Shown here piece after piece: positions 1,173 to 63,605 of a DNA stretch of 64,000 nt. Source of the stretch: a virus. Taxonomy: Duplodnaviria > Heunggongvirae > Uroviricota > Caudoviricetes. Position 1 is the first letter of the stretch. Each line of letters opens with the position of its first letter. The stretch lies in IMG/VR virus record IMGVR_UViG_2910596823_000004. One strand, written 5' to 3'. The notes under the pieces were generated by a model that was not told where the DNA came from, searched no databases, and worked only from the letters and a program-made list of their open reading frames with translations. Both the position numbers and the translations under genes were made by a program.

Positions 1173-1206
1173 TTTGATTTCCCTTTCCACTTAGGTAAGT
1201 ACTTAC

Positions 1207-2463
1207 CTATCTAGATCCACCAAGAATAACACGATTTTTCACCGGATACCTACGATGAACCGGATAACCCAACGCATCCGCACTGTGTTCGATGCCGCCA
1301 GTCTTATCCATATCGCGTGAGCCTGGCTTGTAGATCACCTTCTCCAGCGAGTCGATGAGGTGTTTGCACTTCGGATCGATGTACAACCGGGTTTCGCCCG
1401 AGGCACTCATCAACATGCGGTTCACTGCGTTAACACGGTCTGCGATCGGCGGGTGCTTCTTCGGATAATCGACTCGAAGGAAACCTTTTTCCTTGAAGAT
1501 ATCGACGTCCGATTCGCCGCGTGCGTGCTGGCGATACGCACCTGCCGGGTCAGGGAAGATAGTGACCTGAGACTTCCAACGCCAGAAACGGCGCTCCAGC
1601 TCATCACACACTTCAGCCGTGTTGGAAGAGAACAGCACAACCTCGTCCACGGCCCACAACTCGCCATTTGGCTGCGGCTGCAGGATGACCGATGACATAG
1701 GGTCGATGTTGAAGTCCTGACCAACCCAGATCGGCAGTTTCGGATTGAACTGGAGTGGCTTCACATGCACATTGCGGTCGAACGGGTAGTAAACGCGTCC
1801 GGACATGTTTTCGAAGCTGGCCAGGTATTCCTGTGCGAACGATTTAGGGTCCATATCGTTCTTCGCTGCTTCGATTTCCGCGCTCGGTACGAACGGAGAA
1901 TCGGCCGTAACGAACTGCCAGCTCTTCCACTGCCCCTTGCGTTGCAAATCTTTGTTCTGACCGATAGTCCACAGCTTGTGGAACTCGGAGAAGCCTTTTG
2001 GCGTACCGATGATCAGCGCACCGCCACGGGTGGAGGACAGTGTCGGACGCAGTACCTTGTACCAGGTGTCAGGCTTCATATCCTGAAATTCATCGAGCAC
2101 CACAAAGTGCAGTGCCACACCACGAAGCGTATCGGGCTTATCCGCACCTTTCAGCGCGATTTCAGAGCCGTTCTTCAGCACGATGGTCATCGTGGTGTCG
2201 TTTTTCTTACGAACCCATTTACGCGGCAGAACTTCCTGCAGGTCATCCCACAAGATCTGGCGAGCCATCTGGTAAGTCGGTGCGACGTACCAGACACGTT
2301 GCTTCTTCTCTTTGGCTGCCGCGCGGATGATGGTGGAGATCGACAACCGGGATTTACCCCAGCGTCGACCCGCACACACCACTTTGAAACGATGTGGCGA
2401 CTGGAAGACTTGCATCTGCCCAGAATGCAGCTGTACGAGACTCAGAGACGACGGGATGGCCAT
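1207..2463 (-). CDS. terL: Terminase large subunit (TerL)
   Basis: 418 aa. It has an N-terminal Walker A (VVCAGRRWGKS) typical of terminase ATPase, a packaging-module position between the putative TerS and portal, and a 3-nt gap to the upstream gene. Confidence 0.75.
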   Translation of the reverse strand: MAIPSSLSLVQLHSGQMQVFQSPHRFKVVCAGRRWGKSRLSISTIIRAAAKEKKQRVWYVAPTYQMARQILWDDLQEVLPRKWVRKKNDTTMTIVLKNGSEIALKGADKPDTLRGVALHFVVLDEFQDMKPDTWYKVLRPTLSSTRGGALIIGTPKGFSEFHKLWTIGQNKDLQRKGQWKSWQFVTADSPFVPSAEIEAAKNDMDPKSFAQEYLASFENMSGRVYYPFDRNVHVKPLQFNPKLPIWVGQDFNIDPMSSVILQPQPNGELWAVDEVVLFSSNTAEVCDELERRFWRWKSQVTIFPDPAGAYRQHARGESDVDIFKEKGFLRVDYPKKHPPIADRVNAVNRMLMSASGETRLYIDPKCKHLIDSLEKVIYKPGSRDMDKTGGIEHSADALGYPVHRRYPVKNRVILGGSR

Positions 2464-2465
2464 AG

Positions 2466-3107
2466 TTAGACGCTCCCATCACTTTCATCACCAGACGCGT
2501 CAGAATCGCCCTCAGCTTCGCTCAGTGCTTCCTCTTCGAGTGACTCAAGCAGATCGTCATCAATCAGATCCGGCTCATCATCTTCCTTACGCAGCTGCGC
2601 CACCTGGGAAGGCGTAAGTTCGCCAAATACCAGGTTCGGGATTTCGTCGTCCTCGTTCTCCACGCGATCCATACCGAGCGCTTTCGACGATATTTCGAAG
2701 CACTTAGCGAGTGTGCCGCTGGCACGCTGGAGACTCTTCAGGTCATCTTCGATGGCTGCCAGTGGCCTGCCGTCCTTCTTGGCTGTGGCCACCTCATGCA
2801 TCACCATACGACCGAGTGCGAACGCCCAATCGTCGTAACGAGTCCGGCGCTCTTCGATTTTCTCTGCACGCGCCTTCGCACGCAGCTCTGCGTCGGATTT
2901 GAGCGACTCGCGCACCATCTTCCCAACGGAGTCCGCGCCTTTCTCTAATCCACGCTTTTTGAAATGTCTGGAGAGCGTTTCACGACGAATGCCGTACTCT
3001 TCCTCCAGCTTGGAGAGTGTGTATTCGCCGGAAGTCCACTTCGCTTCGGCTTCTGCCCACTCAGCTGGTGTCAGGCGAGTTTTGCTCTCGTCTTTTTCTA
3101 CAGTCAT
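2466..3107 (-). CDS. Putative terminase small subunit / DNA-binding packaging protein
   Basis: 213 aa, immediately upstream of and coupled to TerL. It has an HTH-like N-terminus and a very acidic C-terminal tail. The assignment is by position only. Confidence 0.45.
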   Translation of the reverse strand: MTVEKDESKTRLTPAEWAEAEAKWTSGEYTLSKLEEEYGIRRETLSRHFKKRGLEKGADSVGKMVRESLKSDAELRAKARAEKIEERRTRYDDWAFALGRMVMHEVATAKKDGRPLAAIEDDLKSLQRASGTLAKCFEISSKALGMDRVENEDDEIPNLVFGELTPSQVAQLRKEDDEPDLIDDDLLESLEEEALSEAEGDSDASGDESDGSV

Positions 3108-3302
3108 AGATCCCTCTAAAACACTCAGAGCGCATCCTTGCGCTCCTAAACAACTTGTTTAATTCAGTGCCTAACCAATTTGTTTTCTGGGTGTTTAAAA
3201 CCGGGCTGGGAAGTATTCAGAACCTGCTTCCGTATATATTTAATAAGTCACTTAGTATTTATATATACGGAAGCAGGCTCTCAAACTGGCTCCCAGACCG
3301 AC

Positions 3303-3569
3303 TTACATCACCAGTAATTTGGCTCTGGCACGACCTAACGTGGTCAGTCCCAGCGTGCGACGGTGGTAGCCGGAATCACCGCGCTGGCGGCACATTCCTT
3401 TCTCCACCAGCCCCTTTTTCACCAGTGCGCGGATAGAGAACTGCATACTCTGTTTGGTCGTTTTGTACGGCAGCACTTCAAGCAGCTCGTCCAGATCGAG
3501 CAGATGCCCACGCTCATGGCCTAAATTGATGGTTTTGATGATGTCTTTTTGTTTGTCGGTCAACGTCAT
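3303..3569 (-). CDS. Hypothetical small protein (88 aa), possibly winged-helix
   Basis: ORF in the same operon direction. It is followed by an 80-bp hairpin element. Confidence 0.4.
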   Translation of the reverse strand: MTLTDKQKDIIKTINLGHERGHLLDLDELLEVLPYKTTKQSMQFSIRALVKKGLVEKGMCRQRGDSGYHRRTLGLTTLGRARAKLLVM

Positions 3570-3578: not shown

Positions 3579-4478
3579 TTATGCCGGTAATGCAATTTCA
3601 AGAGGTTTATTCAAAGGCTGTTTGTCGAATGCCAGCAGTGGCAGCGTGTCCGGCAGCTGACGACCAAAGTCCGGGTTTCGGTACACGCCATACAGCGGAG
3701 ACGTGAAGCTCAGGTTGTGAATGTCCTTGAGCAGCTTCACGATGCTGGCCTCGTCCACCAGGCTGTCGGCAATGTCCTGAATCGTCGTGCCACGATTACG
3801 CCCGGCTTTGGCCAGGGAACTGTTCTTGTGGTAGTCAGCGACCAGATCACGCAGCGCACGACGACGGCGAGACTCACTCATGGCGAACAGCTCTTTGACG
3901 ATCGCTTCGTTGTCGCCAGGGTCAGAACGGAAATGACGCTGGAAGACGCGCAACGCACTCTCATAGCTCTTCGGACGCTCCGGACGGATGAACTGGAACC
4001 CTGCTTTCATGGCGAACGGGTTGTATTTGCTCATCGACGACTGGATCTCGATGATTGGCCGGTCGTGCATCCTGCTAACCAGGTTAATCATTCGATAGGA
4101 GACGCCGACACCGCGGTACTGAGTGTCAACAACGGAACGGCTGATCACGGCAAAGTTGTTGTTCACGTACCGGCCCCAATACTGGTTGGCCACGGTGGTA
4201 TTGGTGGTTGGCTTCAGCTTAGGAAACATGCGATGGCGAGGCGCCAGCAGCAGTTTCGGGTAAGCCATAACCACGACGCCCACCAGCCGGTCGTCCAGTT
4301 CGCAGCGATAATACGTTGGCGCGAACGGCTTACCATCCGTCTTGTAGTGCAGCGACTTCAGCGCGTGCCAGTCTTCAACCGTGCCTTTGGTAACGGTCAT
4401 ACGCTCCAGAAAGTCCAGATGACGCGGGAACTCTTCCGGGCGGTAGCGTTTGATGATGATGCCTGTCATGTCGATCAC
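3579..4478 (-). CDS. Hypothetical protein (299 aa). The central segment VVDTQYRGVGVSYRMINLV looks like GNAT motif A.
   Basis: Long ORF, tightly packed with its neighbours. Confidence 0.45.
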   Translation of the reverse strand: MIDMTGIIIKRYRPEEFPRHLDFLERMTVTKGTVEDWHALKSLHYKTDGKPFAPTYYRCELDDRLVGVVVMAYPKLLLAPRHRMFPKLKPTTNTTVANQYWGRYVNNNFAVISRSVVDTQYRGVGVSYRMINLVSRMHDRPIIEIQSSMSKYNPFAMKAGFQFIRPERPKSYESALRVFQRHFRSDPGDNEAIVKELFAMSESRRRRALRDLVADYHKNSSLAKAGRNRGTTIQDIADSLVDEASIVKLLKDIHNLSFTSPLYGVYRNPDFGRQLPDTLPLLAFDKQPLNKPLEIALPA

Positions 4479-4729
4479 CTACGCTCGATATTGGCATTGA
4501 TGAAGTCCAGGCGAAGCGATTCCATCGCCCCAACCATGACGTATGGACGCCCACCGTTATGCCAGCAATCCAGCACACTGCCGTCGTTGTTGATCATCAG
4601 CAGTGCCAGGCTCTGGCTTTTGCCTTCTCTGGCGTACTGGAGTGCTTCTTCCAGCAGGCGGATGACTTCAACGTTGTTGTTGTCAGCCTCTTTCGATGGC
4701 TTCAGCTCTACGATCTTCAAATCAGGCAT
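4475..4729 (-). CDS. Hypothetical protein (84 aa)
   Basis: ORF overlapping its neighbours by 4 nt and 8 nt (operon coupling). Confidence 0.4.
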   Translation of the reverse strand: MPDLKIVELKPSKEADNNNVEVIRLLEEALQYAREGKSQSLALLMINNDGSVLDCWHNGGRPYVMVGAMESLRLDFINANIERR

Positions 4730-5360
4730 ATTCCACCTTCACGCGTTCTTTGTAGTGCTTGGTGATCTGCATATCCGGGCGCAGCGCGTTCTTCAGGTCT
4801 TCGTGGGTCGTCGCCACCATTACCGTCGCACCAACCTTACGGGCGGCACGCTGGAGGTTCGACGCCACAACCTGGGCGGTTACACGGTCGAGAACAGCGC
4901 CAAATTCGTCGGCAGCCCAGACTTTCGCGCCGGACTCGATCAGCTTGGCGATCTTGAGACGGTATTTCTGGCCGTCAGACATCTCGGATGGCTTACGCAC
5001 AAAGAGATAGGCGTCGTTCAATCCGGCCATAGACAGCAGCCCCAGCGCTTCGCTGGTGGTTTTGCCCAGCTGGTCAATGACGTTAACCTCATTGTCGAAG
5101 GCAAAGTCATCGATGGAGGCTACAGAAAGCCCTTCATCCTTCATCTGGCGTTGCAGCTCGCGCAGCACAACGGATTTACCGGAACCGGATTGGCCGGTGA
5201 TGTACACCACGTCGCCCTGCTTCACTTCCAGCTCCAGATTGTCGTAAAGCGTCCACTCTTTTTCGTCCAGACCAAGACCGAACGATTCGGCAATCTCCAG
5301 CGTGCGCGTGGTTTTGTTCACGCGGGTCTGAAACGATACGTTGATGGTGTATTTGCTCAT
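4722..5360 (-). CDS. Minimal ABC-type ATPase
   Basis: Walker A GQSGSGKS, ABC signature MSDGQKYRL, Walker B VWAADEF, H-loop TTHE. Its start overlaps the upstream ParB-like gene (ATGA). Confidence 0.6.
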   Translation of the reverse strand: MSKYTINVSFQTRVNKTTRTLEIAESFGLGLDEKEWTLYDNLELEVKQGDVVYITGQSGSGKSVVLRELQRQMKDEGLSVASIDDFAFDNEVNVIDQLGKTTSEALGLLSMAGLNDAYLFVRKPSEMSDGQKYRLKIAKLIESGAKVWAADEFGAVLDRVTAQVVASNLQRAARKVGATVMVATTHEDLKNALRPDMQITKHYKERVKVEYA

Positions 5361-6058
5361 GCGGCCAGCTCCCCAGAAGAAACTTTCTCCGCATACGCCA
5401 CGAAAGCGTCTACCCCGCTCTCTCCCGTGATTTCTTCCATGTGGGCAAGCAAATCCCCAACCACAATGGCAGAGCCAGCAGGGAGCGTTTTAAAACCCAA
5501 TACGTCGATGACGCGGACTTCTTCAGCGGCCACTTCGCGACTGATCTCGGTGTGCTCTTCTTTCTGGCGTTCCGTCTCTTCGCCCAGATCGAGCACCAGA
5601 GAGCCGGTTTCCATCTCTTCGGTCATGCTGCCGACAAGCACGTTCAGCTCGCGCTCTTCAAAACCGAAGACCTCGACGTCGCCCAGCACCAGGGATTCCA
5701 GTTCCTGCTGCAATTTGATGGCGTCGTAGTCAATACTGGCCAGGCGGTTGTCTTCCAGACGCTTCGCCTTCACTTCTTCTTCGCTCAGATCGTCGCGAAC
5801 GATGACCGGCACACGCTCCAGACCAGCCAGAAGTGCCGCCTCGCGACGACCGTGGCCAGTAATGATGACGTCGTGCTTGTCGACCGTGATCGGCTGGTCA
5901 AAACCGCGCTTTTTGATGGCGGCCGCCAGGTCGCGGATCTGCTGTTCGTCATGTTTTTTGGCGTTCATCTCATACGGGATAAGTTCTGCCGGGTTTCGAT
6001 AGACGATTTCAAAGTTTTTGGTCATTACATACGCTCCTTGTAGTAGTCGACCAGCCAC
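5357..6058 (-). CDS. ParB/Srx-like N-terminal domain protein
   Basis: ParB-NTD motifs (NPAELIPYEMNAK ... ITGHGRREAALLAG). The real start may be the internal ATG at 6025 (MTKNFEIV). Confidence 0.55.
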   Translation of the reverse strand: MAGRLLQGAYVMTKNFEIVYRNPAELIPYEMNAKKHDEQQIRDLAAAIKKRGFDQPITVDKHDVIITGHGRREAALLAGLERVPVIVRDDLSEEEVKAKRLEDNRLASIDYDAIKLQQELESLVLGDVEVFGFEERELNVLVGSMTEEMETGSLVLDLGEETERQKEEHTEISREVAAEEVRVIDVLGFKTLPAGSAIVVGDLLAHMEEITGESGVDAFVAYAEKVSSGELAA

Positions 6059-6723
6059 ACTAGGGCTTCCCCGGCGTTCTCAATTTCGTTACCGGTATTG
6101 ATCCCCTGCTCTTTGATGATGGTTTTGATGGTGTCGGCGACGCGATCTGACGCATCAAACGTCACCTTAAAGCGCATCGTCTGGTGTTCAGCGCCGACTC
6201 GCTCGGTTTTCTCGCGTTTGTCATCATCGACCGGCTCGTCATCGCCACGGGAGAGTGCTTCCAGCGCCTCAAGATCGATAACGGACGCTTTGGCGAGTGT
6301 TGCCGCCATCTCGTCGTCATACGGGGCGATATCGGACAACCGGTAGTCGATTTCAGACTGGATTTCTTCGATTAAGCGCTGCAAAGCGACCTGATCGTCT
6401 TCGCCGTAGCGCTCGTTATCGACGAGGGACATCTGCTTGGCCACCAGGTCGTTAATTTTGCCCACGGAGATGACGGGAACCGTTGAAATGCCCTGCTCCA
6501 TCGCGGCACGCCAGCGGTGTTCGCCACCGAGGATCTCAAAAATGCCCCCGTCCAGCTCCCGCGCCAGAATTGGCTTAAAAAAGCCCAATTTTTCGATAGA
6601 GCCTTTCAGTTTTTCGAAGTTTTGCGCTCCAACGGAGTTGGTATTCCAGGGATTCGGACGCAGGTTCGCGACTTCCACCTGCAGAATCGTAATTTTCACA
6701 TCCATAATTCTGATACAATCCAT
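6025..6723 (-). CDS. ParB/Srx-like N-terminal domain protein (second copy)
   Basis: LRPNPWNTNSV ... ILGGEHRWRAAMEQGISTVPVI, which resembles the ParB GERRxRA box. Confidence 0.55.
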   Translation of the reverse strand: MDCIRIMDVKITILQVEVANLRPNPWNTNSVGAQNFEKLKGSIEKLGFFKPILARELDGGIFEILGGEHRWRAAMEQGISTVPVISVGKINDLVAKQMSLVDNERYGEDDQVALQRLIEEIQSEIDYRLSDIAPYDDEMAATLAKASVIDLEALEALSRGDDEPVDDDKREKTERVGAEHQTMRFKVTFDASDRVADTIKTIIKEQGINTGNEIENAGEALVWLVDYYKERM

Positions 6724-6787
6724 TGTATAAGTACTTACTTACTATAATAGCCAATTACCATACAAAAGGCACGAAGGAAAGAGGTTT

Positions 6788-8349: not shown

Positions 8350-8628
8350 ATGAGCGAGAAACGCGCTATACACTGCCAGGTTCAGTTAACCGAAAAAGCA
8401 AACGACAAGCTGGAAACCTTTCAGAATCGACTGCGTGAACGCAACATAAAACTGTCAAAGGCAGACATCATTAATCTGGTGCTGTCCAACATGACGATGG
8501 CTGATTTTGATAAGGCAGCTACATCATTAGAGGCTTCAGCCAAAGCTCGCGAAAAGGTCATGAAGATTTACGAAAACTCGGGTATGACCAAAGAAGATCT
8601 GGCCGATATTCTAAAACGCCTCGATTGA
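8350..8628 (+). CDS. Hypothetical protein (92 aa)
   Basis: Coupled 3 nt after the helicase stop. Followed by the terminator at 8631-8660. Confidence 0.45.
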   Translation: MSEKRAIHCQVQLTEKANDKLETFQNRLRERNIKLSKADIINLVLSNMTMADFDKAATSLEASAKAREKVMKIYENSGMTKEDLADILKRLD

Positions 8629-9111: not shown

Positions 9112-9116
9112 CGATA

Positions 9117-9643
9117 TGACGAATATTACTGACATCACCTACGGGATTCCTGCAGAAGTCTGGCCGCGAGATTACACCAACGTGGAGAAGGCGCTGATGT
9201 TCTGGCGTAAGTCTCTCATTCCTGTAAGGGTCACGATGGAAGATGGTCAGGTGTTCTGCATGTACGTTCAGGGTCTCATGTCGTCGCGCAACAAAGTCGA
9301 CCTTTGCCCTGCCCCGTTCGACAAAGAAAATCGTATAAGGCTCCCACTTGAGCGAATCAGCACGATTGAATCAGGTGTGACAGAAGGCATTGCGCACGAT
9401 TTCACGGGTCGGACAACGGTACACCCAGACTATGTGGAGAATCGGCCATCTCGCCGTGATTTCTTCAAAATTTGTCGCCAGGCTCATGAGATGCAGAAGT
9501 CTATAAGGGTCTACATGGCGGATGGCCGTGAAATTGAGGGTGTGTCTTCAGGCGTAGACGCTTGCCAGGTCACGCTCAACATGGGGGACGGTCGGAAGAC
9601 AGTCGTCATGTTCGATTGGGTCGAACGGATTTTACCGTTTTAA
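9117..9643 (+). CDS. Hypothetical protein
   Basis: ORF (MTNITDITYG...). The track start at 9080 overlaps the previous gene, so the ATG at 9117 is preferred. Confidence 0.45.
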
Positions 9644-12611: not shown

Positions 12612-13007
12612 TTATTCAAACACGCTTTCGGGAATAAATTCGTCTACCATCGCGCTGGAAACGATGCGCAGACCGTATTGACCCATCCAGGTGCTGTTAG
12701 AGTTCAAATCAGAGGTAAACAGCGTGTCGACTCTGGTCATCAGCTTATCGAACATCGCCTTGTCCGCGGTGCGGAAGTACGCTTCCAGCTTTAGCAGCAG
12801 CGGGTCGGTTGCGTTGCTGATGTTCTGATAACCTACGGTGTATACCGCACTTTCACCTTCCCCCTCGCGCACTAAGGTGCTGGTGTGAACCTCCGTTCCG
12901 GTAGTGTTGTCACGCAGAACGACGGTCAGTTTGGCAACTTTCTCGCCGAAGGTGGTTTCGGACGCATAATGTAAATCCAGCACAAGATTTTCGCGTAAAA
13001 CAGTCAT
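12612..13007 (-). CDS. Hypothetical protein (131 aa)
   Basis: ORF with a palindromic element upstream (13046-13064). Confidence 0.45.
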   Translation of the reverse strand: MTVLRENLVLDLHYASETTFGEKVAKLTVVLRDNTTGTEVHTSTLVREGEGESAVYTVGYQNISNATDPLLLKLEAYFRTADKAMFDKLMTRVDTLFTSDLNSNSTWMGQYGLRIVSSAMVDEFIPESVFE

Positions 13008-13074
13008 CTTTATCTCCCTGTATTTGACTAACCTATATTATTGTCATAGGTATGTACTTACAATACAGGAGACT

Positions 13075-20676: not shown

Positions 20677-20853
20677 AAGCTCCTTGTCGATTTTATGGTT
20701 CCGGCAGGCGTTCCTTCGTTCCCCTGTAGCACTAAATTAAATGGCAGCTTCGCCTGATTAACGCTGGCGAATGTAATTCTCGATTTTTCGCTCATGTGTT
20801 TACCTCTGATAAAGTGGCTCTATTCTTACACAAATTAGGTAAGTATTTACCTA

Positions 20854-22557
20854 TCATTTTACACGCTTGAAAACGTATACGCTGACAGTGATTCCGGTGT
20901 CTTCAAACTCGTCAGTAAACGACTTCCCTTTGGCATAAACGTAATTATCCAGCGACATCCAGTTCAGAACTGGCGCATCACCCGGCAGTACAGCCACCAG
21001 TCGCCCGCCGACTTTAAGATGCTCCAGCGCGGCCAGCGTATGCTCTCTGTGACGGCCAAGAGAGTAGGGCGGGTTCATGACGATTTTGTCGAACTGATAG
21101 CCTGCGTTGTCCTCAGACCACTTCATGAAGTCACAGCAGACCGTATTTGTGTACCCCTTGCCAAGCAGGATATCAGCGAAGAGAGGTGCGACTTCTATGC
21201 AGGTAACGTCTTCCGGATTGGCGTCGATGCAGGCCAACAGATCTCCGCGCCCGGCTTCAGGCTCCAGCAGCTTCTCACCTAGCTTCAGCTCGATGGCTCT
21301 GGCAACGTACTCCGCTATCAAACGTGGGGTAGGGTAGAACTGGTGTGATTTTGTATCCGGTATTAAGCCGGTGGCCACAATCGTATTGAGCGTATGGCCG
21401 ATCTCATACGGGAACTGCCAGTGCTTTTTCTCCTGCACGCCGCCAATGAAGTTCAGTGTGCGCTCAAGCTCTTCCACCTGTGACTTCTGTAGGTTGGAAT
21501 CAGAGAAGTACCAGACGCCTTTGTCTTTGCTGAATCGCCCGTCGCGCAGCGCGGTACGAACCGGCTCGGAGATCGTCTTCTGGATTAACCCGAACTCTTT
21601 TGGTGCCCGTGTTTTGGGTGCAGTACGGCATGGCGCCGGGATTGCTGCAGGCATACTGTAAGCCAGCACCTCATTCAGCTTCCAGGCCACGTCAGGATGT
21701 ATTTCAAAGTGAACGTTGCCGTTCTTGAACATCTTCACGCGCATCAGGTTTCCGTCGACATTCATCCAGTCACCGGTCTGGCAGTCGTTTGCCCGGTACG
21801 CAGCTGATAGCATCTCAGTTGTGCGGTTGATGGTGATGAACTCTTTGTGTGCGAAGAAATGAAGCATGACGCGCAGGTCGTCGATGTAGTCCTCTTTCCG
21901 GTAGTTCACGCTGACGCTGTCCCGCCAGAACTCGGAAATGCAGTTGGCGATGATCAGACGCTCGCTAAAGCCGTTCGTCTTATTGGTCTTGTGGGCAGGA
22001 CTCAGCGCTTTAAACAAGCCATACACGCGCTCAGAGAGATATTTGTGCCTGTCATTCAGCAGATTGAGCATCGTGGGGATGACCGTTTCTGCTTTGAACT
22101 CCGGCACACCAACGAACTCCTTAACCTTCATCTGGTAGCCGGTTCTGTCAGTCCTGATGGTCTCCTGCTTGCCCTCGATGAACTGCTCCCGCCACTCGTC
22201 GCGGCGGGAAGCTGGCATGATCAGCAGAACGTTTGTCATATCCGTGACCTTCTTCCAGTACTCGGCCCAGATATTCTGTTTCACCCATTCAAGGTCGACC
22301 TTATCCAGCCAGGCTCTGTTAAAGCGTGTGCGCTCGTCATCCGGCCGGTGGTTGAGTCGCAGCAGGCGGTTAATCATGTTGTGGCGTTCGTCGCCATAAA
22401 CGAAGTCGTGAACCTGATGCATGAATGCGATCTCTTTCTCGCACTCGGCCACAATTTCGTGGATGACGTTCATTTCCTGCCGGTAGTCGATATCAGTGTT
22501 TGGGGTGATAGCGTCAATGATGGAAAGGGCTGTATTCATGATTGCACCATTAAACAA
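20854..22557 (-). CDS. DNA N6-adenine methyltransferase with a long N-terminal extension
   Basis: C-terminal class-I SAM MTase with NPPY (FDKIVMNPPYS). The real start is probably the ATG at 22539 (MNTALSIID), since the track start lies inside the upstream class-B motif. Confidence 0.6.
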   Translation of the reverse strand: MFNGAIMNTALSIIDAITPNTDIDYRQEMNVIHEIVAECEKEIAFMHQVHDFVYGDERHNMINRLLRLNHRPDDERTRFNRAWLDKVDLEWVKQNIWAEYWKKVTDMTNVLLIMPASRRDEWREQFIEGKQETIRTDRTGYQMKVKEFVGVPEFKAETVIPTMLNLLNDRHKYLSERVYGLFKALSPAHKTNKTNGFSERLIIANCISEFWRDSVSVNYRKEDYIDDLRVMLHFFAHKEFITINRTTEMLSAAYRANDCQTGDWMNVDGNLMRVKMFKNGNVHFEIHPDVAWKLNEVLAYSMPAAIPAPCRTAPKTRAPKEFGLIQKTISEPVRTALRDGRFSKDKGVWYFSDSNLQKSQVEELERTLNFIGGVQEKKHWQFPYEIGHTLNTIVATGLIPDTKSHQFYPTPRLIAEYVARAIELKLGEKLLEPEAGRGDLLACIDANPEDVTCIEVAPLFADILLGKGYTNTVCCDFMKWSEDNAGYQFDKIVMNPPYSLGRHREHTLAALEHLKVGGRLVAVLPGDAPVLNWMSLDNYVYAKGKSFTDEFEDTGITVSVYVFKRVK

Positions 22558-23361: not shown

Positions 23362-24177
23362 TTAATGAAGACGTTTGGATTCCTTCATTTCACGTTCGAC
23401 ATGCTCACGACACGGCTCATACTCAATGGCGCTGGCGGTAATTTTCCCGGCAGAAATTAGCTTCACGGCAGCAAAGCAAAGTCCTTTAAAGGTGAACTTG
23501 GCCTGGTTGCGTCCGTTTCCGATGACAACGTTTTTGCCATATCCGCGGTCAATGAAGATCTTGAGGAACTGGCGGTTAACAGTGATGTATTTGCGCTTAA
23601 CGTACACATCACCCAGCGAGTCCATCAGCGCACCCAGAACAGCCCCGGACGTTCCGAGAATGCGACCAGCTTCATTCAGCCCATAAAGCTCATCAGCAGT
23701 GCCGCAAATGGTGTCCATGAGAATGGCTTTTGGTTTTGCGTTAGATAGTGCAACGCCTAACGCCTCGTTCTCTTTCTCCAGACGCTCGTTTTCCTCGACC
23801 TGGTGTAACAAATGAACCAGAGCTTCTTTATAGGTACGTGGAATAGCAGGCGTTCCGCGGTCGGCAAACATGGACTCAAGCTCTCTCCACCGATCAACAA
23901 GGCGTGCGGTAAATTCAGGAGAAAGCTGCGCCACGACAACGATGCTGTCGCGTTTACCCTGTTCGGCTTCGAACAAGTAAAACGTAGCCGGACGCCCGGC
24001 AGTGGGCTTTTCCACCAATGGTGGAAAAGTAATAACGCCGGATTTAGCGAGTCTTTCAATGGTGCGTTTTACGCTGTCATGGCGACTGCCGACCATTTCG
24101 GCGATCTCCTGACTGGTCATCGATGGTTTGGCGTGTAAGCCTGTAGTGGTGGGAGTGTGTGCAGTTGCCTCAAACAT
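23362..24177 (-). CDS. Phage regulatory protein Rha / antirepressor-like
   Basis: Rha-type N-terminus (TSQEIAEMVGSRHDSVKRTIERLAKSG). Confidence 0.5.
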   Translation of the reverse strand: MFEATAHTPTTTGLHAKPSMTSQEIAEMVGSRHDSVKRTIERLAKSGVITFPPLVEKPTAGRPATFYLFEAEQGKRDSIVVVAQLSPEFTARLVDRWRELESMFADRGTPAIPRTYKEALVHLLHQVEENERLEKENEALGVALSNAKPKAILMDTICGTADELYGLNEAGRILGTSGAVLGALMDSLGDVYVKRKYITVNRQFLKIFIDRGYGKNVVIGNGRNQAKFTFKGLCFAAVKLISAGKITASAIEYEPCREHVEREMKESKRLH

Positions 24178-24978: not shown

Positions 24979-25387
24979 TTGGATTCCATTCAGTGTCAGA
25001 AAGAGTTGCGGCTGGCTTGGCCAGCCGCCTTTTGGCGTTCCATCCTGGAACAGTACCTAACCGGTACTTCGTCATCCTGACGAACGGTAAGATACCTGAT
25101 TTAAAATGATAGGTAAATGCTTACTTATTACTTTGTGACAAAAATCCAATATCACGCTTGTGAGGCATATCAGATGCGGAGTAGACGGCGATCATAGTAG
25201 GCCGTTCATTAGATCGGCTTTGAGAGCGGATTGGACCAAACCCTAGATAGCGAGAGAGCACGGTGCTAATACCCGGTCACGTCACCAGCCAGGCGACAAC
25301 AGATGAGTTCATGGCAACATTTCGGAAGGTATCTTCGTATCATTATGTGGTTAAATATACATAATTTAACCCAATGGAATTTTAGCC

Positions 25388-25990
25388 ATGCTAGCCTTCT
25401 GGCACGAAAATTCAGACCTCATCTCCGCATTTTTAGCAGCTCTTTTAGGTGGCTTTTTCACGATGCTAGGAGTGACAACTCAGGTGAAACAGCAAGCAAA
25501 ACAGCAGGCAACAGCGGCCAGAGAGAAGCGTATAACAACGCTATTGGGTGTCAGAGAGGAAATAGACTCACTGATTAAACTGTATCAGGCCAGAATGGCA
25601 GAAGAACTCAAAAAATACGACCAGAACTCACCGTTCGATAACATTTTCCCCATTACTCAAAACTACTTCACGTTCTATGAAGCCAACTCGGCATCCCTAC
25701 CTGAAGTTCATAGAGAAACACTCTCAAAAATTGTGGCTTTTTATACAAGCGCAAGAAGCCTAATTGATTCCTATCGCGGTAATAATGCACTTATCGAACG
25801 GCTGGACTCCACGCAGGTTGCAAGTGACATTACTGGCAACAAAGAGCATCTTGCACACCTGAAAAGATACACCATCCTAGCCACAAAGTACGGCCGCGGA
25901 TTAATGATGATTCATGAAGAGGTCATGCTGCGCTATAAACAGGTTATAGAAGCCATCGATGGTGAAATCTCACAGTTACAATGCAGTTAG
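25388..25990 (+). CDS. Membrane-anchored hypothetical protein (200 aa; N-terminal TM)
   Basis: ORF on the opposite strand, inside an apparently lower-GC island. Confidence 0.45.
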   Translation: MLAFWHENSDLISAFLAALLGGFFTMLGVTTQVKQQAKQQATAAREKRITTLLGVREEIDSLIKLYQARMAEELKKYDQNSPFDNIFPITQNYFTFYEANSASLPEVHRETLSKIVAFYTSARSLIDSYRGNNALIERLDSTQVASDITGNKEHLAHLKRYTILATKYGRGLMMIHEEVMLRYKQVIEAIDGEISQLQCS

Positions 25991-26187
25991 CACTACAATC
26001 TGTCCGCATATTACTCGACGCGGTCGGGCTTAACGGGCTGAAGATCCACTGTGAGCGAGAAGATGACTGTTACGCGTTGAAGTTAATTGTATTACTTAGG
26101 TAAACATTATCATTTTCCAGACGTTAAGTTGTATCTTTGATAGGATTAAAAAAGGTATAGATAGCTTATGTTACTGAAGGAATAAAA

Positions 26188-26997
26188 ATGACAAAAATTA
26201 GTGAACGATGGAAGCACAATGGCATTACTAAAGGTTATTGCAATATTTGTGGAAAATTTGACTTGCTCACAAAGGATCATGTCCCTCCAAAGTGCGCCAT
26301 AACCTTAGGTCCTGTCCTTCAGAAAACAGTTAGCGAATTTTTTAATGCTCAGGAACCAGTTAAACCGTTAAATGCTAAAAACGGATCTTATTTCAGAACT
26401 ATTTGCAGTCACTGCAACAATAAGGTGTTAGGTGGGTTCGATGTTGCAATTGAAAATGTAGCAAACTCCTTTAAAGAACAGTTGAGTCAATATATGAATG
26501 GTACGAATGTATATCCATTCATTAGAATACCTTTTGATAGCATATCTTTCACTAAGGCTATGATTGGACACGTGCTATCAGCAACTTCAGTTGAAGATTG
26601 TAAAAAAGAACCCGTACACAGCCTCTTCTATACACCTTTAAAGGATTATGTTTTGGGTAATAATCCAAGTTTTGAGGAAACTCATGATATTTACTACTGG
26701 TTTTACCCACACAGAATGCACATATCCGCTCAAAGTGTAGCATTTATGAACGAAGGACATGTGGCATTTATTTGTGCTTTACATTTTTTCCCTATCGGGT
26801 TTATTATCACAATGAAAAATGAAGGAACATACCCTGCCCACTCAACAAAATTAGATCTTGAAGATAAATTCCTTACATTTAATATGACCTCTATAAATTA
26901 TGAGTATACGACATTTCCATTTGTAAATCTTAAGGGAAACCAAATGTATGCTATAAGCAACGGCCATACTTGTGTTAGTTATCCAATAATTAAGTGA
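26188..26997 (+). CDS. HNH-endonuclease-domain protein (269 aa)
   Basis: N-terminal CNICGKFDLLTKDHVPPK ... CSHCNN, i.e. a Cys pair, DH and a second Cys pair in an HNH-like arrangement. The C-terminal ~180 aa are unassigned. AT-rich codons. Confidence 0.5.
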   Translation: MTKISERWKHNGITKGYCNICGKFDLLTKDHVPPKCAITLGPVLQKTVSEFFNAQEPVKPLNAKNGSYFRTICSHCNNKVLGGFDVAIENVANSFKEQLSQYMNGTNVYPFIRIPFDSISFTKAMIGHVLSATSVEDCKKEPVHSLFYTPLKDYVLGNNPSFEETHDIYYWFYPHRMHISAQSVAFMNEGHVAFICALHFFPIGFIITMKNEGTYPAHSTKLDLEDKFLTFNMTSINYEYTTFPFVNLKGNQMYAISNGHTCVSYPIIK

Positions 26998-27656
26998 CAG
27001 CTAAATTATACAATCAACGCATGTTCACGTTTTACATATACCATCGATAATGTCCGCTCTTGGCACATTGAAGACATTACGATGCGCGATTTTTTCCCTC
27101 GCGCGTGTGCGCACGCGTGCGTGTAAATATTAAAAATTTTTATTAGAAAAGAAAAACTTACTTCCCAGAACAGGTTTTAATAAAACCTGAACTGAACGAA
27201 CGAAGTGAGTGAAGTTCACCTCGAACGAAGTGAGAGGTTGTCTTTTCAGGTAATACTCTCCCAGGGAGGTGAGTACAAAATCTCCTCACCAACCTGGTCG
27301 TTACATAACCTGAAAAGTTATGACCTAAGTCTACTGCCAGCTTAGGCTTGGGAAGTTATGGATGACAGCACCCCAGAACCGAGATCTTCCCACACTTTAT
27401 GAAGGGGAGTACTGGATTCAACCTCTCGAAATACTCCAGACTCGACAATCATAAAGTGACCCTTCTCTCCGCTCACTTTGGTTCCCCCTTCCCCAACCCC
27501 TAAGCGGTGCCGGTTCTACGCTGGTAGTGAGCTTTTTTAAACCTGACGCCAGTGACGCTATCCCCCACCCATCAGGTCGAGCTGCCGGAATCAATCCGGA
27601 AAGCGAGTGGATTTTATCACTGGCGATCTGCGTTTTAAATGGTAAGTACTTACCGA

Positions 27657-28707: not shown

Positions 28708-28867
28708 TTACCTATTTTTTCATTTAATCCAACGAATAGCAAACAAAGAAGAACGCGCCAGATCCGCAAACGGGAAGCTCTCTGGCGCGTTTTATCGATG
28801 CTGGGTATGCGATTAGCTTACCCAGCGTCCTAAAGCTCTCAGGGGCTTTAGATCGGGTAGGGGAACA

Positions 28868-37875: not shown

Positions 37876-40191
37876 TCAGATTTTGCACGCGCCATCGCAC
37901 TCATCTTCTGGCTCAACAACCTCCGCAGCGGAAGGGTCTGACACCTGATCGTCGTCATCACGCTTACCAGCGCCATCACGCGTGTTGTGGTAATAAAGCG
38001 TCTTCACACCTTGCTGATACGCAAACAGCAGATCTTCCAGCAGCTTCATCATTGGAACCTTGTCGCCAGGGAAGCGAGTCGGGTCGTAGTTGGTGTTCGC
38101 AGAGATGGCCTGATCGAAGAACTTCTGAATGATGGCCACCTTAGTCAGATAGCCGCGGTTATCCGGCATATCCCACAGGTACTCGTACTGGTCTTTCAGT
38201 TGAGCGAAGTCCGGAACGACCATCTTCACGATGCCGTCTTTGGAAGACTTCACGGACACCGGGCCGCGGGGCGGCTCAATACCATTGGTGGAGTTGGTGA
38301 TCTGGCTGGACGTCTCACACGGCATTTGAGCGGTCAGAGTTGAGTTACGCAGACCATGCTCACGGATACGGCCACGCAGCTCTTCCCACGGCATTTTCAG
38401 CTCGAAAGAGGTCTCCGGGTTGGTATCCAGCGTTTTGCGATAGTGGTCGACTGGCAGCTGGCCCTGTGCGTATTTGGTGTGGGAGAACCAGTCACATGCA
38501 CCTTTCGCTTCGGCCAGTCGGCAGCTCGCATCGAGCAGGTAGTACTGAATGGCTTCGAAGGTCTCATGAACCAGCTGGTTGCCCGCAGCGTCAGAGTAGT
38601 TAAAGCCGTTCTTCGCCAGATAGTAAGCAAAGTTGGTCACGCCAATACCCAGACTACGACGAGCTTTAGCCGGGATTTCTGCAGCAGCCATCGGGTAGTC
38701 CTGATAGTCGAGCAGAGAGTCCAGTGCCGCCACAGCGTAAAACGCCACGTCTTTCAGTGAGTCCAGCGTGCGGATCGCACCCAGGTTGAACGCAGACAGG
38801 GTGCAAAGCGCGATTTCCCCGTTCGGATCGTCAGTGAACGCCAGTGGCTTGGTCGGTAGCGTGATCTCCATACAGAGATTGGACTGGTGTACCGGTGCAA
38901 TTTCCGGAACGAATGCGCCGTGATCGTTCATGTGGTCGACGTTGGCAATATAAACACGACCAGTGGAGGCACGCTCCTGCATCAGCGTAGAGAACAGGTC
39001 GACGGCCGGGATAGATTTCTTACGGATGCTCTCGTCGGCTTCGTACTTCAGGTACAGCTCTTCGAACTTGTCCTGATCAACAAAGAACGCGTCGTACAGG
39101 CCCGGCACATCGTGTGGGCTGAACAGCGTAATGTTTTCGTTGCGCACCAGGCGGCGATACATCAGACGGTTGATCATCACGCCATAGTCGAGATGACGAA
39201 CGCGGTTCTCTTCAATGCCACGGTTGTTTTTCAGCACCAGCAGACTTTCAACTTCCAAGTGCCAGATCGGATAGAACGCTGTAGCAGCGCCGCCGCGAAC
39301 ACCGCCCTGAGAGCAGGATTTCACCGCCGTCTGGAAGTGTTTCAGGAATGGAATAACGCCAGTGTGGGTGGCCTCGCCATTGCGGATCTCACTGCCCAGC
39401 GCACGCAGACGCCCAAAACCAATACCAATGCCCGCGCGACGTGACACGTAGTCGATGATTGCGGAAGACGCAGCGCTAATCCCTTTCAGACTATCAGCAG
39501 CTTCAATCAGCACGCAGCTGGAGAACTGGCGAGTAGGGGTGCGCACGCCGGCCATAATTGGCGTTGGCAGAGACAGCTTGAATGTACTGGTCACATCGTA
39601 GAAGCCCTTAACCATCTCCAGACGCGTCTTACCGGCGCAGCCATCTTCCCAATTCTGGAACAGGCACATGCCGACCAGCATGTAGAGTTGCTGTGGCCCT
39701 TCGTAGATAGCGCCAGTTACACGGTTTTGAACGAGATACTTGCTCGCCAGCTGCACGGTGGCGGCATAGCCGAAGTATTCGTCGCGCTTAGGCTTGATGT
39801 ACACGCCCAGCTCGGCAATTTCTTCCTGAGAGTAGTACTTGAGAAGGTCTTCATCGTAAACGCCACGACTGACGTTGCTGACGATGTGATTGTAGAAATT
39901 CGGGTAGTCATACTGGCCGAAGGCGTCCTTGCGGATCTTGAACAGGCTCAGTCGCGCGGCAACCTGCGAGTAGTTCGGGGTTTCCGGAGAGATCAGATCG
40001 GCAGCGGACTTCACCAGCGCCTCATGCAGCTGGCAGGTGGTCATTCCGTCGAAAATGCTGGCAGCAGCGCCCATAGCGACAGCAGACGCGCTAACGTTGC
40101 GAATGTTTTCGACTCCCCACATCACAACGCGGTTGTATTTTTCCTCTGACAACGGCTCAGTGGAACCGTTACGTTTTACGATGCTTATCAT
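37876..40191 (-). CDS. nrdA: Ribonucleotide reductase large subunit (class Ia NrdA)
   Basis: 771 aa with an N-terminal ATP-cone (VKRNGSTEPLSEEKYNRV) and a C-terminal CxxC tail. Confidence 0.8.
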   Translation of the reverse strand: MISIVKRNGSTEPLSEEKYNRVVMWGVENIRNVSASAVAMGAAASIFDGMTTCQLHEALVKSAADLISPETPNYSQVAARLSLFKIRKDAFGQYDYPNFYNHIVSNVSRGVYDEDLLKYYSQEEIAELGVYIKPKRDEYFGYAATVQLASKYLVQNRVTGAIYEGPQQLYMLVGMCLFQNWEDGCAGKTRLEMVKGFYDVTSTFKLSLPTPIMAGVRTPTRQFSSCVLIEAADSLKGISAASSAIIDYVSRRAGIGIGFGRLRALGSEIRNGEATHTGVIPFLKHFQTAVKSCSQGGVRGGAATAFYPIWHLEVESLLVLKNNRGIEENRVRHLDYGVMINRLMYRRLVRNENITLFSPHDVPGLYDAFFVDQDKFEELYLKYEADESIRKKSIPAVDLFSTLMQERASTGRVYIANVDHMNDHGAFVPEIAPVHQSNLCMEITLPTKPLAFTDDPNGEIALCTLSAFNLGAIRTLDSLKDVAFYAVAALDSLLDYQDYPMAAAEIPAKARRSLGIGVTNFAYYLAKNGFNYSDAAGNQLVHETFEAIQYYLLDASCRLAEAKGACDWFSHTKYAQGQLPVDHYRKTLDTNPETSFELKMPWEELRGRIREHGLRNSTLTAQMPCETSSQITNSTNGIEPPRGPVSVKSSKDGIVKMVVPDFAQLKDQYEYLWDMPDNRGYLTKVAIIQKFFDQAISANTNYDPTRFPGDKVPMMKLLEDLLFAYQQGVKTLYYHNTRDGAGKRDDDDQVSDPSAAEVVEPEDECDGACKI

Positions 40192-40232: not shown

Positions 40233-40268
40233 TGTTAATAGATAAGTACTTACCTATCAATTACCGAC

Positions 40269-44817: not shown

Positions 44818-45045
44818 GTGTCTTTTCCTTTGTGGTTATTTTGATACAGATATTAAGCGTGTTTAAGAGGCGATCAACCCAGACAACACGGCACATTAGA
44901 AAATCTACAGGCACATGATTATGACAAAATATATAAGTAAGTGAATACCTATTTTATGGAGCGGTAAAGATTTCTAAATGTTACAAGCCACTCTATAATC
45001 GCAGTCACTCAATGATGACAACCAAACGAAAAAGGAGAACGGACG

Positions 45046-49896: not shown

Positions 49897-49936
49897 GATA
49901 GGTAAATACTAACTTATATATTTTTTGCTGTAAATA

Positions 49937-50213: not shown

Positions 50214-50280
50214 TGTTTTCTCCTTGTTGGTAAGTACTTATTTATATTAATGTGCGCCATGCGGCGCACAATCATTGTGT

Positions 50281-52243: not shown

Positions 52244-52304
52244 GTGTTTCCTTTTGTCGTTTTGGTGTAGAAATGATAAGTAAGTACTTATATATTTTCA
52301 AGTA

Positions 52305-55714: not shown

Positions 55715-55833
55715 GTATTTCTCCTTGTTGTGATTGTGGCCATTGGCGCTATGCGCGTTGGGCGTTCGTTTATTCGTGGCTCTTTCGAGCGAGAAGGATG
55801 ATAGATCAGTGCTTACTTATGATCTAGCATAAA

Positions 55834-62093: not shown

Positions 62094-62273
62094 GTGTTTT
62101 TACCTTTCTGGTTTTCTTGATTTTGTCATTGGGGAAGCCAACGAACTTCCCATACATCGAAATCGCAACCTCTTTGGCTGACTGGTGGCACTCGGACCTA
62201 TCCGGACACGCCAGACAAGCCCGGCCAGTTTCAGACGCTGCGATAAGAGAGCCGAAACATCCTTTACGCACGA

Positions 62274-63509
62274 TTAACCGAAGATCTTCTGAACCACTTC
62301 ACGCGCTGCCTGTGCAGACGTGGATGGAAGTTTATTGATAAACGACTTTTCGATGCCGGCAGAGAAATCACCGCGCATCATTCCGATTTTTGCGGACAGC
62401 AGCAGCTCGCGAGGGCCGATTGGCTGGCTGATCAGATGCTGTTCATAACCTTCACGGACAAGGTTCGCGAACTTCACCATCTTCTCGGCGTATTCGCGGA
62501 TGACGCCAGCCTCAGCCAGCATGTTGACTTCAGCCTTAGTGCTCATGTACTTCACGTTCGAAACAATGCCGAAGCGCGAGAAGTTCGCCGCGTTTTGGAT
62601 GTTCGTACCTTGATAGAGACCCGTTTCGTCGCCAGAGCCGTTAGTGTTGCCAGTGCCAATGAAGGCAAAGCGTTTATGCGGAGTGATACGGCGCCAGTCC
62701 GGAGTTGCCTCTTTGATGATCAGCGGCTCTCCTTCAAGAACTGGCTGGTACACACCCAGAATCTGCGGGAACGCGAAGTCATATTCATCAGCGAGGTACA
62801 CCCAGCCATTTTTCATCGCCAGCGCCAGCAAACCAGGCTCGAAGTAGGTGGAGCCATCGCGAGCGAGGATCTGACCTGTAACGTGTGCTTCTTCCATAGA
62901 TGCCGTATGCTGGGCGCGGATCAGTGGTCGATTCAGCAGGGCGCATAGCTGCGTAGGAAGAGAAGATTTACCGGTTCCTGCATGACCCCAGAGATAGCCT
63001 GGGATTCCGATTTCCAGCATCATGAAGATGTCTTTAATTAGGTCGAAGTCGCCATACACATAGTTCTTCTTCGCTTCCGGTACGAACTCCGGATATGGCG
63101 TGTTGACGTTGACTGTCACCTGTAGTGGTTTTCCGCGTGGCGTTCCCAGCTCTTTGATCGTTACGCCAAGCAGCTCGTGCGCGGCCACCAGTTCAGTCTT
63201 GTATTCGACCGTTCCTACGTAGCCCGGATGTGCGCTAATCTCCGCTACTTTTCCTTCGCCTGAATGCTTTTCGGCACGCTTCTCATTGAGTTTGGCCAGT
63301 GCCGTGCGAGAGATCGTTGGTTCATCCGGAAACGCAGAGGTGTACATTTTCACCACTTCGTCCACGTCCAGACCCTTCGCGGACTCAGGAATGTTTTCGC
63401 AACGGCCCATAGAGATATGGGATTTCAGGTAATGAAAGGATTTGCCACACCACTTGCAGACGATGGCTTCCGGCAAATGTTCTTCTTGCTGTAGTGCAGT
63501 AGCGGTCAT
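62274..63509 (-). CDS. AAA+ ATPase (MoxR/CobS-like, AAA_5 type)
   Basis: Walker A GHAGTGKSSL, Walker B VYLADEYD. Confidence 0.55.
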   Translation of the reverse strand: MTATALQQEEHLPEAIVCKWCGKSFHYLKSHISMGRCENIPESAKGLDVDEVVKMYTSAFPDEPTISRTALAKLNEKRAEKHSGEGKVAEISAHPGYVGTVEYKTELVAAHELLGVTIKELGTPRGKPLQVTVNVNTPYPEFVPEAKKNYVYGDFDLIKDIFMMLEIGIPGYLWGHAGTGKSSLPTQLCALLNRPLIRAQHTASMEEAHVTGQILARDGSTYFEPGLLALAMKNGWVYLADEYDFAFPQILGVYQPVLEGEPLIIKEATPDWRRITPHKRFAFIGTGNTNGSGDETGLYQGTNIQNAANFSRFGIVSNVKYMSTKAEVNMLAEAGVIREYAEKMVKFANLVREGYEQHLISQPIGPRELLLSAKIGMMRGDFSAGIEKSFINKLPSTSAQAAREVVQKIFG

Positions 63510-63605
63510 GTGTTTTTCCTTACTGTTTGTCGTTCGTGGGGTATATCTTATATAAATATATTAGGCTGTATAGTAAGTGATTACTTATTTTTACAGGTAA
63601 AGCCA

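Follow-up and report, generated by a model that had tools for sequence, protein, structure and literature searches.

The stretch of DNA analysed here (the window; 64,000 nucleotides, IMG/VR record IMGVR_UViG_2910596823_000004, Caudoviricetes) carries a 22-bp palindrome that recurs in its intergenic gaps and that we discuss as a candidate dispersed operator. In the 20 kb that were compared, the window and Salmonella phage SSU5 (NC_018843) are 98.5% identical. Many plasmids of about 106-115 kb, found in Salmonella, Enterobacter and further Enterobacterales, share 98-99% identity with it. The DNA identity to Escherichia phage Cyrano is about 76%. The window runs in the reverse orientation compared with SSU5, so that nearly all lytic genes lie on its minus strand. 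Its gene content begins with the start of the portal gene and the terminase genes, continues with a parB-like/ATPase operon, a helicase operon that runs leftward and a region of small genes, and ends with the modules for DNA metabolism, recombination and replication. Phage-plasmids of the SSU5/pHCM2 type are commonly hosted by Salmonella, E. coli, Klebsiella, Enterobacter and Yersinia, and SSU5-like plasmids were found in 218 of 5,426 complete E. coli genomes. The family is clinically common and medically relevant, and resistance genes have been reported on such elements (PMC9600943). The full SSU5 genome was scanned as well, where seven copies of the motif lie in the structural-gene region outside the window.

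A preliminary description of the window had listed 16 occurrences of the palindrome. A single motif, with the left arm a-w-RATARGTAAGT and the right arm ACTTACYTATY-a-t, fits all 16, and each of the listed positions holds a copy. The sites are real, with some boundaries off by a few bases: the copy given as 35512-35528 occupies 35502-35523, 6728-6737 is the core of 6722-6743, and 40241-40258 becomes 40237-40258. Two more degenerate copies lie in the loops of long hairpins (3223-3277 and 28006-28062). The copy number is above chance, against shuffles as well as against the matrix expectation. With up to three mismatches, the 22-mer gave 5 matches in the window and none in 100 dinucleotide shuffles, and the 16-mer core gave 6 and none, respectively. 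At least 16 of the 22 positions matched at 13 sites (0.34 expected), and an iterated symmetric matrix retrieved 17 sites (0.9 expected). The symmetric matrix gave 35 matches in SSU5 compared to 2.6 expected, and the genome holds about 30 copies.

The anatomy of the motif was derived from 25 SSU5 sites aligned in gene orientation. It is a near-perfect palindrome of 22 bp with a weak extension to 26 bp, and its two arms have nearly equal information content. The conservation is mirror-symmetric, and even the flanks are nearly so. Only one asymmetry is clear: in gene orientation, the upstream side bears an A-rich tract. The sequence TATATTTTTT, which had been thought to follow several copies on the plus strand, is present and corresponds to this tract, so that it stands upstream of the motif once the genes are oriented.

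The motif is conserved among related phage-plasmids, where its occurrence had been suggested as a check. Cyrano contains 26 strong matches (0.3 expected) at orthologous junctions, and a Klebsiella phage also carries the motif at orthologous positions. Between SSU5 and Cyrano, the motif is 85% identical, compared to 39-64% for the adjoining 10-20 nt of non-coding DNA, and alignments of IMG/VR fragments give the same conservation footprint. The motif is also specific to these elements. A scan of IMG/VR with the 18-mer core found multi-copy loci almost exclusively on SSU5-like contigs, and a 32-nt consensus searched against the 5,426 complete E. coli genomes occurred at 840 places, all on plasmids of SSU5 size, with no chromosomal place among them. 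Hence the element itself very probably encodes the protein that reads the site. In more distant relatives, a 22-bp palindrome is found at the same junctions with an altered sequence: the lineage L168 carries GATAGGTGGTT and AACTACCTATC as its two arms with the centre GGTTAAC, a Xenorhabdus element carries ATAGGTA-N6-TACCTAT, and a Vibrio parahaemolyticus-type element carries CTTAAGTAAGT and ACTTACTTAAG. Retention of the junctions with a changed palindrome is the pattern expected of a site co-evolving with its protein. Separately, two IMG/VR contigs unrelated to SSU5 (L071 and L020) carry palindromes of the sequence AGTAAGTAAGTACTTACTTACT, in L020 as two copies 55 nt apart; these may be chance low-complexity matches of the (GTAA)n type or an independent element.

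The copies show a strict placement relative to genes. In SSU5, 29 of 31 sites lie in non-coding DNA, which makes up 11.6% of the genome. A copy was found in 22 of the 57 tandem (++) gaps and in 4 of the 9 divergent gaps, whereas none of the 7 convergent gaps holds one, and a rightward (lytic) gene in the SSU5 orientation lies downstream of every copy. Of the earlier assignment to convergent or tandem gaps, only the tandem part is thus borne out. Some copies touch the stop codon before them, some touch the start codon after them, and some stand either before or behind a terminator. The order of stop, terminator, palindrome and start, which had been regarded as usual, occurs from 52330 to 52275; it is not a rule, and is reversed from 40258 to 40208. 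At about 7 of 25 sites, only 0-17 nt separate the motif from the start codon, and in the Vibrio relative the ATG at the junction of the terminase large subunit and portal genes follows one base after the motif. Five copies are followed by a terminator within 1-10 nt, with a spacing that differs between relatives.

Promoters resembling the sigma-70 consensus are not enriched in the window (16 compared to 16.3 expected, and 13 compared to 17.0), and motif copies overlap 8 of 29 consensus matches. The register of the motif against these elements differs from site to site. At two sites (52301-52273 and the 3' end of the portal gene) the palindrome forms the spacer and the -10 element of TTGAAA-17-TATSAT, and the arrangement in the portal gene is shared by SSU5, Klebsiella, Cyrano, L168 and Xenorhabdus, in every case with the respective variant of the palindrome. 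At 6722, the -10 hexamer stands at the left edge of the motif, so that transcription would start inside it. At 20834, 44932, 13045 and SSU5 38177, a conserved -10 or extended -10 element (TGTAAGAAT, TGTCATAAT, TAnnAT) lies 4-9 nt downstream. A fixed downstream -10 was not found: over 69 sites of three genomes, the best -10-like hexamer on the gene side was no better than that on the mirrored side (p=0.82). A promoter-terminator overlap with the start in the terminator arm was ruled out as well, as the spacing between motif and terminator varies from 6 to 10 nt among relatives. Such a variable register does not suit a promoter element of fixed geometry, but it suits an operator, which can be placed anywhere across a core promoter. 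In addition, TGTAAGAAT recurs 4-6 nt past two unrelated copies (window 20822-20833; SSU5 38203-38211); it is kept in Cyrano and Klebsiella and looks like an extended -10.

RNA sequencing values for every Cyrano gene in an LF82 lysogen under five conditions are available (S1 table of PMC9928086). The genes behind two near-consensus motif promoters were at background in overnight LB and in B6. In MB6, CYRAN_56 rose by 3.6 log2 and CYRAN_4 and CYRAN_5 by about 1.2-2.8 log2. The copy at 52275 lies in one of these two promoters, the gene behind its Cyrano counterpart being silent in LB and B6 and up by 3.6 log2 in MB6. Expression at the gap orthologous to the 49897 copy rose by 3.65 log2 in MB6. 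Clear steps were also seen at the motif gaps ahead of CYRAN_12, 34, 60 and 81. Step-ups of at least 2 log2 in B1 or MB6 occurred at 6 of 18 motif gaps compared to 8 of 76 others (Fisher p=0.025), and expression steps down at gaps in which the motif is followed by a terminator. The silence of promoters that look strong from their sequence is the best indication of repression in the prophage state.

The most promising candidate reader is the 88-residue winged-helix protein listed in Table 1. Its profile matches are weak and all to winged-helix families (LexA_DNA_bind with E=0.14; RctB, RosR and Lrs14 with E of about 0.2). The gene lies immediately upstream of the terminase small subunit gene terS in every relative, including that from Vibrio, and the gap between both genes contains a motif-bearing element. 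Its putative recognition helix TKQSMQFSIRAL shows only M/I and I/L changes in four lineages with the outer half-site ATAGGTA, and becomes TKPAIQFTLRRM in the Vibrio lineage with the half-site TTAAGTA. In addition, the wing of the protein varies together with the motif centre. In the Cyrano lysogen, its RNA is 2.6-3 log2 above that of the preceding gene. The second candidate, a ribbon-helix-helix-like protein of 92 residues, is expressed much more strongly in the lysogen than the winged-helix gene, and its operon diverges from the 6722 copy. However, genomes in which the motif is identical vary in the residues of its putative DNA-facing strand.

Other proteins were considered as the reader, and most were rejected. 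The FljA-like 'transcriptional regulator' (9116-9643, plus strand; Pfam Flag1_repress) has a predicted tandem Hfq/Sm fold: its AlphaFold model (pLDDT 84) contains two Hfq/Sm domains, and Foldseek superimposes it on Hfq with a root-mean-square deviation of 1.1-1.2 Å. Such a fold is consistent with the mRNA role of FljA, so that the protein is an unlikely reader of a DNA palindrome. It is found in all SSU5-like elements, and its clade occurs on contigs of about 105-115 kb from many Enterobacterales. The version in a Klebsiella phage-plasmid shares 83-85% identity with it although the host lacks flagella. The protein is probably a post-transcriptional regulator of the phage-plasmid. A Rha-family winged-helix protein (23362-24177) and the helix-turn-helix protein SSU5_116 are both missing in the Cyrano and Klebsiella relatives that keep the motif. 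For P1 Lpa, the best tblastn hit had an E of 0.72, and BLASTP against the winged-helix protein gave E=8; tblastn of the P1 immunity repressor C1 against SSU5 and the window gave a best E of 2.7, and no C1 operator was found. Two ParB_N proteins align convincingly with Spo0J over the N-terminal domain only, the ParB helix-turn-helix region aligning poorly, and their DNA-reading domain is not convincing. PHROGs and Pfam scans of 30 small conserved proteins returned almost only 'unknown function'.

Based on these observations, we propose a model, to which we give about an even chance, in which the palindrome is a dispersed operator for a phage-encoded repressor that would be symmetric and probably dimeric. 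About 30 copies stand at the upstream edge of most rightward lytic blocks, including those for DNA metabolism, recombination, lysis and structural proteins. In the plasmid-prophage state, the bound protein would keep these blocks silent. Where the site lies across the -35, the spacer, the -10 or the +1, it would occlude sigma-70 promoters, and at tight junctions lacking a promoter the bound protein would act as a roadblock. Upon induction, binding would be lost and many promoters freed at once. The 88-residue winged-helix protein is favoured as the putative binder. That this one small protein reads all of the roughly 30 palindromes, as a single genome-wide switch for early and late cassettes, seems to us unlikely. 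If true, the regulatory architecture would be flat, without the usual temporal cascade, and the copies before terminators and at promoterless junctions would be protein-dependent insulators or terminator modulators rather than classical operators.

Several points weigh against the operator model, in which repression is inferred. Many copies (e.g. 1190, 25108, 40237 and 55800) have no recognisable promoter, so that the roadblock has to be assumed as a second mode of action, and the five copies directly before terminators are poorly explained by any transcriptional model. The association of motif gaps with expression step-ups is weak (p=0.025), and more so against gaps of at least 25 bp (p=0.096). 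As the values come from whole populations, lie near background and may stem from a few induced cells, the expression evidence is supportive only. The link between recognition helix and half-site covers five lineages only. Furthermore, the winged-helix gene lies in a rightward operon beside late genes and its RNA tracks partial induction, with the highest level in MB6, which would also suit an activator.

An activator is indeed the basis of the main alternative, which we consider rather unlikely: the motif would be a phage-specific promoter element at which a phage activator, e.g. the winged-helix protein, recruits host RNA polymerase and replaces recognition of the -35, like Lpa at P1 late or MotA at T4 middle promoters. 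The copies are always ahead of rightward genes, including the four divergent gaps where units must start; most lack a -35 but have TAnnnT at motif positions 19-24; several conditionally expressed Cyrano units begin at motif gaps; and the winged-helix RNA peaks when late genes are partly on. The core AAGTACTT is also similar to the P1 -22 box AAGTNACTT, and a small regulator (lpa), a late promoter and a terminase gene follow one another in P1 as well. However, the -10-like elements lie anywhere from upstream of the motif to 21 nt downstream, with no excess on the gene side, and the flanks have the near mirror symmetry described above. The start codons close behind the motif and the five copies followed by terminators at varying distances do not suit a promoter element either. 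Moreover, two copies sit in near-consensus promoters with an optimal 17-bp spacer that need no activator, and no Lpa homologue was found. A non-transcriptional DNA function, in which the copies would be centromere or loading sites for the ParB-N proteins or boundary sequences for cassette exchange, is improbable in our view. ParB, Noc and KorB typically use dispersed palindromic sites, a copy stands just ahead of the genes for two ParB_N proteins, and copies lie on both sides of a variable cargo island (25.1-27.6 kb) and at the borders of gene blocks. Against this, alignment of the ParB-like proteins with ParB is confined to the N-terminal domain, the island breakpoints are not at motifs, and neither the strict placement upstream of rightward genes nor the promoter overlap is predicted by such a function. 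That a host transcription factor reads the site is scarcely credible: all hosts are Enterobacterales or Vibrio, and the outer GATA..TATC loosely recalls AT-rich host operators, but the 5,426 complete E. coli genomes hold no chromosomal place against the 840 on SSU5-like plasmids, and the motif differs between plasmid lineages sharing hosts.

It is also quite improbable that the motif acts in RNA, as a hairpin controlling translation, stability or processing in polycistronic transcripts, with the conserved FljA-like protein as a possible reader. All copies would be transcribed, several abut start or stop codons, and the predicted tandem Hfq-like RNA binder is present in all relatives examined and expressed in the Cyrano lysogen; FljA itself has been reported to bind fliC mRNA and to block its translation (PMC4122451). 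However, the arms do not covary. At 49 sites of SSU5 and Cyrano, 9.08 of 13 positions were pairable between the arms, compared to 9.25 ± 0.13 after shuffling of the right-arm columns, and over the seven arm pairs tabulated there were 50 G-T and 47 A-C mismatches, so that the RNA-compatible wobble is not favoured. A hairpin has no need of equal arm conservation. Convergent gaps, where an RNA element of the 3' end would be expected, hold no copy, whereas divergent gaps do. The motif does not resemble the fliC leader, its stems would be short and AU-rich, and a search of Rfam 15 gave no match at the gathering score. Two RNA functions had been put forward in the preliminary description. Hiding of an AGGU ribosome-binding sequence is not supported, given the lack of covariation, of wobble preference and of an Rfam match, and also the position of AGGT in the left arm, at least 17 nt from the motif end and too distant to serve the next start codon. 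An RNase III-type processing site fares no better, as a stem of 9-10 bp is too short for this enzyme and the seven convergent gaps are empty. The uncompensated deviations, the absence of a wobble excess, the empty convergent gaps and the lack of an Rfam match together point to selection on the half-site sequence. We conclude that the target of selection is duplex DNA, recognised by a protein with two-fold symmetry, and not a hairpin. Of the functions proposed at the outset, a promoter-proximal operator for a global phage or plasmid repressor is the one that the evidence favours, since the site is a symmetric duplex, overlaps sigma-70 elements variably, is specific to the element and is conserved amid diverging flanks.

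Table 1. Copies of the palindrome, long hairpins and candidate binder genes in the window.
Feature	Position	Strand	Setting	Further details
Motif	1190-1211		32-bp junction of terminase large subunit (terL) and portal genes	terL stop codon inside motif; portal ATG 16 nt past motif; no promoter-like element present at this junction; junction copy also in Cyrano, Klebsiella, Xenorhabdus and Vibrio relative
Motif	6722-6743		64-bp divergent gap between helicase operon (+) and parB-like to terS operon (-)	Overlaps annotated ATG of parB-like gene; -10 hexamer abuts upstream edge and is kept though lineage sequences differ (TATTAT, TAGAAT, TATGAT, TATACT)
Motif	13045-13066		Order: terminator, motif, -10-like hexamer, gene 12615-13007 (-)	-10-like hexamer 5-6 nt past motif (TAATAT, TAGTAT or TAGAAT in three genomes)
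Motif	20834-20855		Begins at stop codon of DUF4942 methyltransferase gene	Conserved TGTGTAAGAAT, extended -10-like, 4 nt downstream
Motif	25108-25129		Edge of low-GC cargo island	Top-scoring copy in SSU5; about 70 nt downstream non-coding and conserved across relatives
Motif	27637-27658		Overlaps stop codon of gene 27660-27887 (-)	Extended -10 (TGaTAAAAT) 21 nt downstream
Motif	28695-28716		Immediately upstream of Dam-type methyltransferase gene	
Motif	35502-35523		16 nt before thymidylate synthase start	Right member of motif-terminator-motif gap
Motif	35655-35676		Overlaps stop codon of MazG-like gene	Left member of motif-terminator-motif gap with 35502
Motif	40237-40258		10 nt past stop codon	Followed by intrinsic terminator 40231-40208 and nrdA start 40191
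Motif	44932-44953		Divergent gap upstream of sbcD-like gene (-)	Conserved extended -10 (TGTCATAAT) 7-9 nt downstream
Motif	49897-49918		Abuts ATG at 49896	Sigma-70-like TTTACA-17-TAGTAT (49934-49906), its -10 in motif centre
Motif	50225-50246		Order: hairpin, motif, Shine-Dalgarno, ATG	ATG 13 nt past motif
Motif	52275-52296		Within near-consensus sigma-70 promoter TTGAAA-17-TATCAT (52301-52273, -)	Downstream of terminator 52330-52310; arrangement kept in Cyrano
Motif	55800-55821		Between UvsY-like and gp32-like genes	
Motif, weaker	63568-63589		Between two cobalamin/porphyrin-type genes	
Long hairpin, 17-bp arms (CCTGCTTCCGTATATAT)	3223-3277	-	Between winged-helix gene and terS	AT-rich loop with one-base-expanded core TAAGTGACTTA
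Second long hairpin, then T-run	28006-28062	-		Degenerate motif in loop (28023-28044)
Gene of 88-residue winged-helix protein	3303-3569	-		Top binder candidate (inferred)
Gene of 92-residue ribbon-helix-helix-like protein	8350-8628	+	Leftward helicase operon	Second binder candidate (sequence pattern)

A third SSU5 copy of the long hairpin lies near 33472, and a T-run follows two of the three SSU5 copies. In L168, the loop of the long hairpin matches the lineage's own motif variant. The hairpin is probably the first recurrent element implied by the preliminary description, in which the palindrome was the second. The annotated start of the Dam-type methyltransferase in SSU5 is a GTG within the motif (SSU5 77650-77672). 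Neither this GTG nor the ATG following the motif in SSU5 is conserved in the window, which reads AAA, and translation probably begins at the ATG 12 nt downstream.

The low-GC island between 25.1 and 27.6 kb has a motif copy on each side, as had been pointed out before. Its breakpoints do not coincide with the motifs, the left breakpoint falling within a truncated RNase H gene. The island (about 25130-27630) replaces most of the SSU5 RNase H gene and contains two plus-strand open reading frames (ORFs), 25388-25990 and 26188-26997, with no Pfam match. The relative CP074286 has an IS110 transposase at the same place, which makes this a cargo hot spot between two motif copies. Downstream of the 25108 copy, the segment at about 25030-25107 (minus strand) is almost invariant across SSU5, Cyrano and Klebsiella-type relatives and contains the hairpin CGTCAGGATGACG; it may be a structured leader or a small RNA. 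Past the 27637 copy, the segment at about 27200-27636 (minus strand) has a strong extended -10 (TGaTAAAAT). Its Cyrano orthologue, the 44-residue ORF CYRAN_81, is among the top-expressed rightward (+) features in the lysogen (log2 7-10), and the product may be a small protein or a non-coding RNA.

Two further regions were noted. The operon at 3579-6723 (minus strand), directly upstream of the winged-helix gene and terS, encodes the two ParB_N proteins, an ABC-type ATPase, a small ORF and an ATPase/acetyltransferase-like protein; the four larger proteins are conserved as far as the Vibrio relative, but the small ORF is not. About 2 kb of the window that SSU5 lacks (32305-34385) separate the PNK-like gene from that of thymidylate synthase and contain ORFs of 260 (32364-33146) and 340 (33143-34165) residues.

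A defined operator together with a short list of candidate readers makes the switch between plasmid silence and lytic growth directly testable. The motif is also a sequence signature for annotating transcription units in the SSU5-like family, and the operator offers a way to induce or cure such elements. In the literature, no paper describing the motif sequence or the regulation of SSU5-like elements was found. Regulation through dispersed sites is known from other phages and seems undescribed for this plasmid family.

Among known systems, the OB sites of RK2 KorB and the dispersed sites of N15 SopB are read by full-length ParB-family proteins. Similar to the motif, they are palindromes spread across the intergenic DNA of a plasmid or phage-plasmid, and they link maintenance proteins to gene silencing. 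However, the ParB-like proteins of the window have a clear N-terminal domain only, with nothing tying them to the motif. The P1 late promoters share AAGT/ACTT core half-sites with the motif, and in both elements the gene of a small regulator directly precedes a motif-bearing element and the terminase gene. At 3244-3254, the long hairpin here even has a loop that reads exactly AAGTGACTT, a likeness to the P1 late promoter box. In P1, though, the box is a 9-bp inverted repeat centred near -22 with a fixed distance of 4 nt to a TAnnAT -10, whereas here the 8-bp core is embedded in a palindrome of 22-26 bp with even spacing, a variable register and no side bias; the 9-bp form of the box is found only in the long-hairpin loops. 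As the L168 centre GGTTAAC differs, the likeness to the -22 box is probably coincidental, and so probably is that to the lpa-LPpac-pacA order.

The C1 operators of P1 resemble the present sites in function only. P1 is likewise a plasmid prophage, and its annotation places scattered operators over sigma-70 lytic promoters in varied registers, as many sites here overlap sigma-70-like promoters. The C1 operator is an asymmetric 17-mer (ATTGCTCTAATAAATTT) with no match in the window at up to three mismatches, and the late structural operons of P1 are under Lpa rather than C1, whereas here the motif is also found all through the structural genes. In phiC31, the conserved inverted repeats are reportedly 17 bp long and lie mainly in the early region. 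They too are palindromic repressor sites repeated between genes, often beside promoters and terminators, but with a different sequence, a different repressor family and no homology. The stoperators of mycobacteriophage L5, bound by the repressor gp71, are said to be asymmetric 13-bp sites that are occupied by a monomer and oriented with transcription. As with the motif, about 30 copies lie in short intergenic gaps of early and late operons and orthologous positions are kept, and the block of elongation at stoperators is a model for copies that lack a promoter. Unlike these oriented sites, the motif is a palindrome of 22-26 bp without orientation, in an unrelated phage and host. Functionally, the P1 C1 operators, the L5 stoperators and the phiC31 repeats are the closest systems, each with a single repressor for tens of sites between genes. 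The motif is homologous to none of them. To the few phages that control a whole genome via dozens of dispersed sites, the SSU5-like elements would add a palindromic, dimer-type example.

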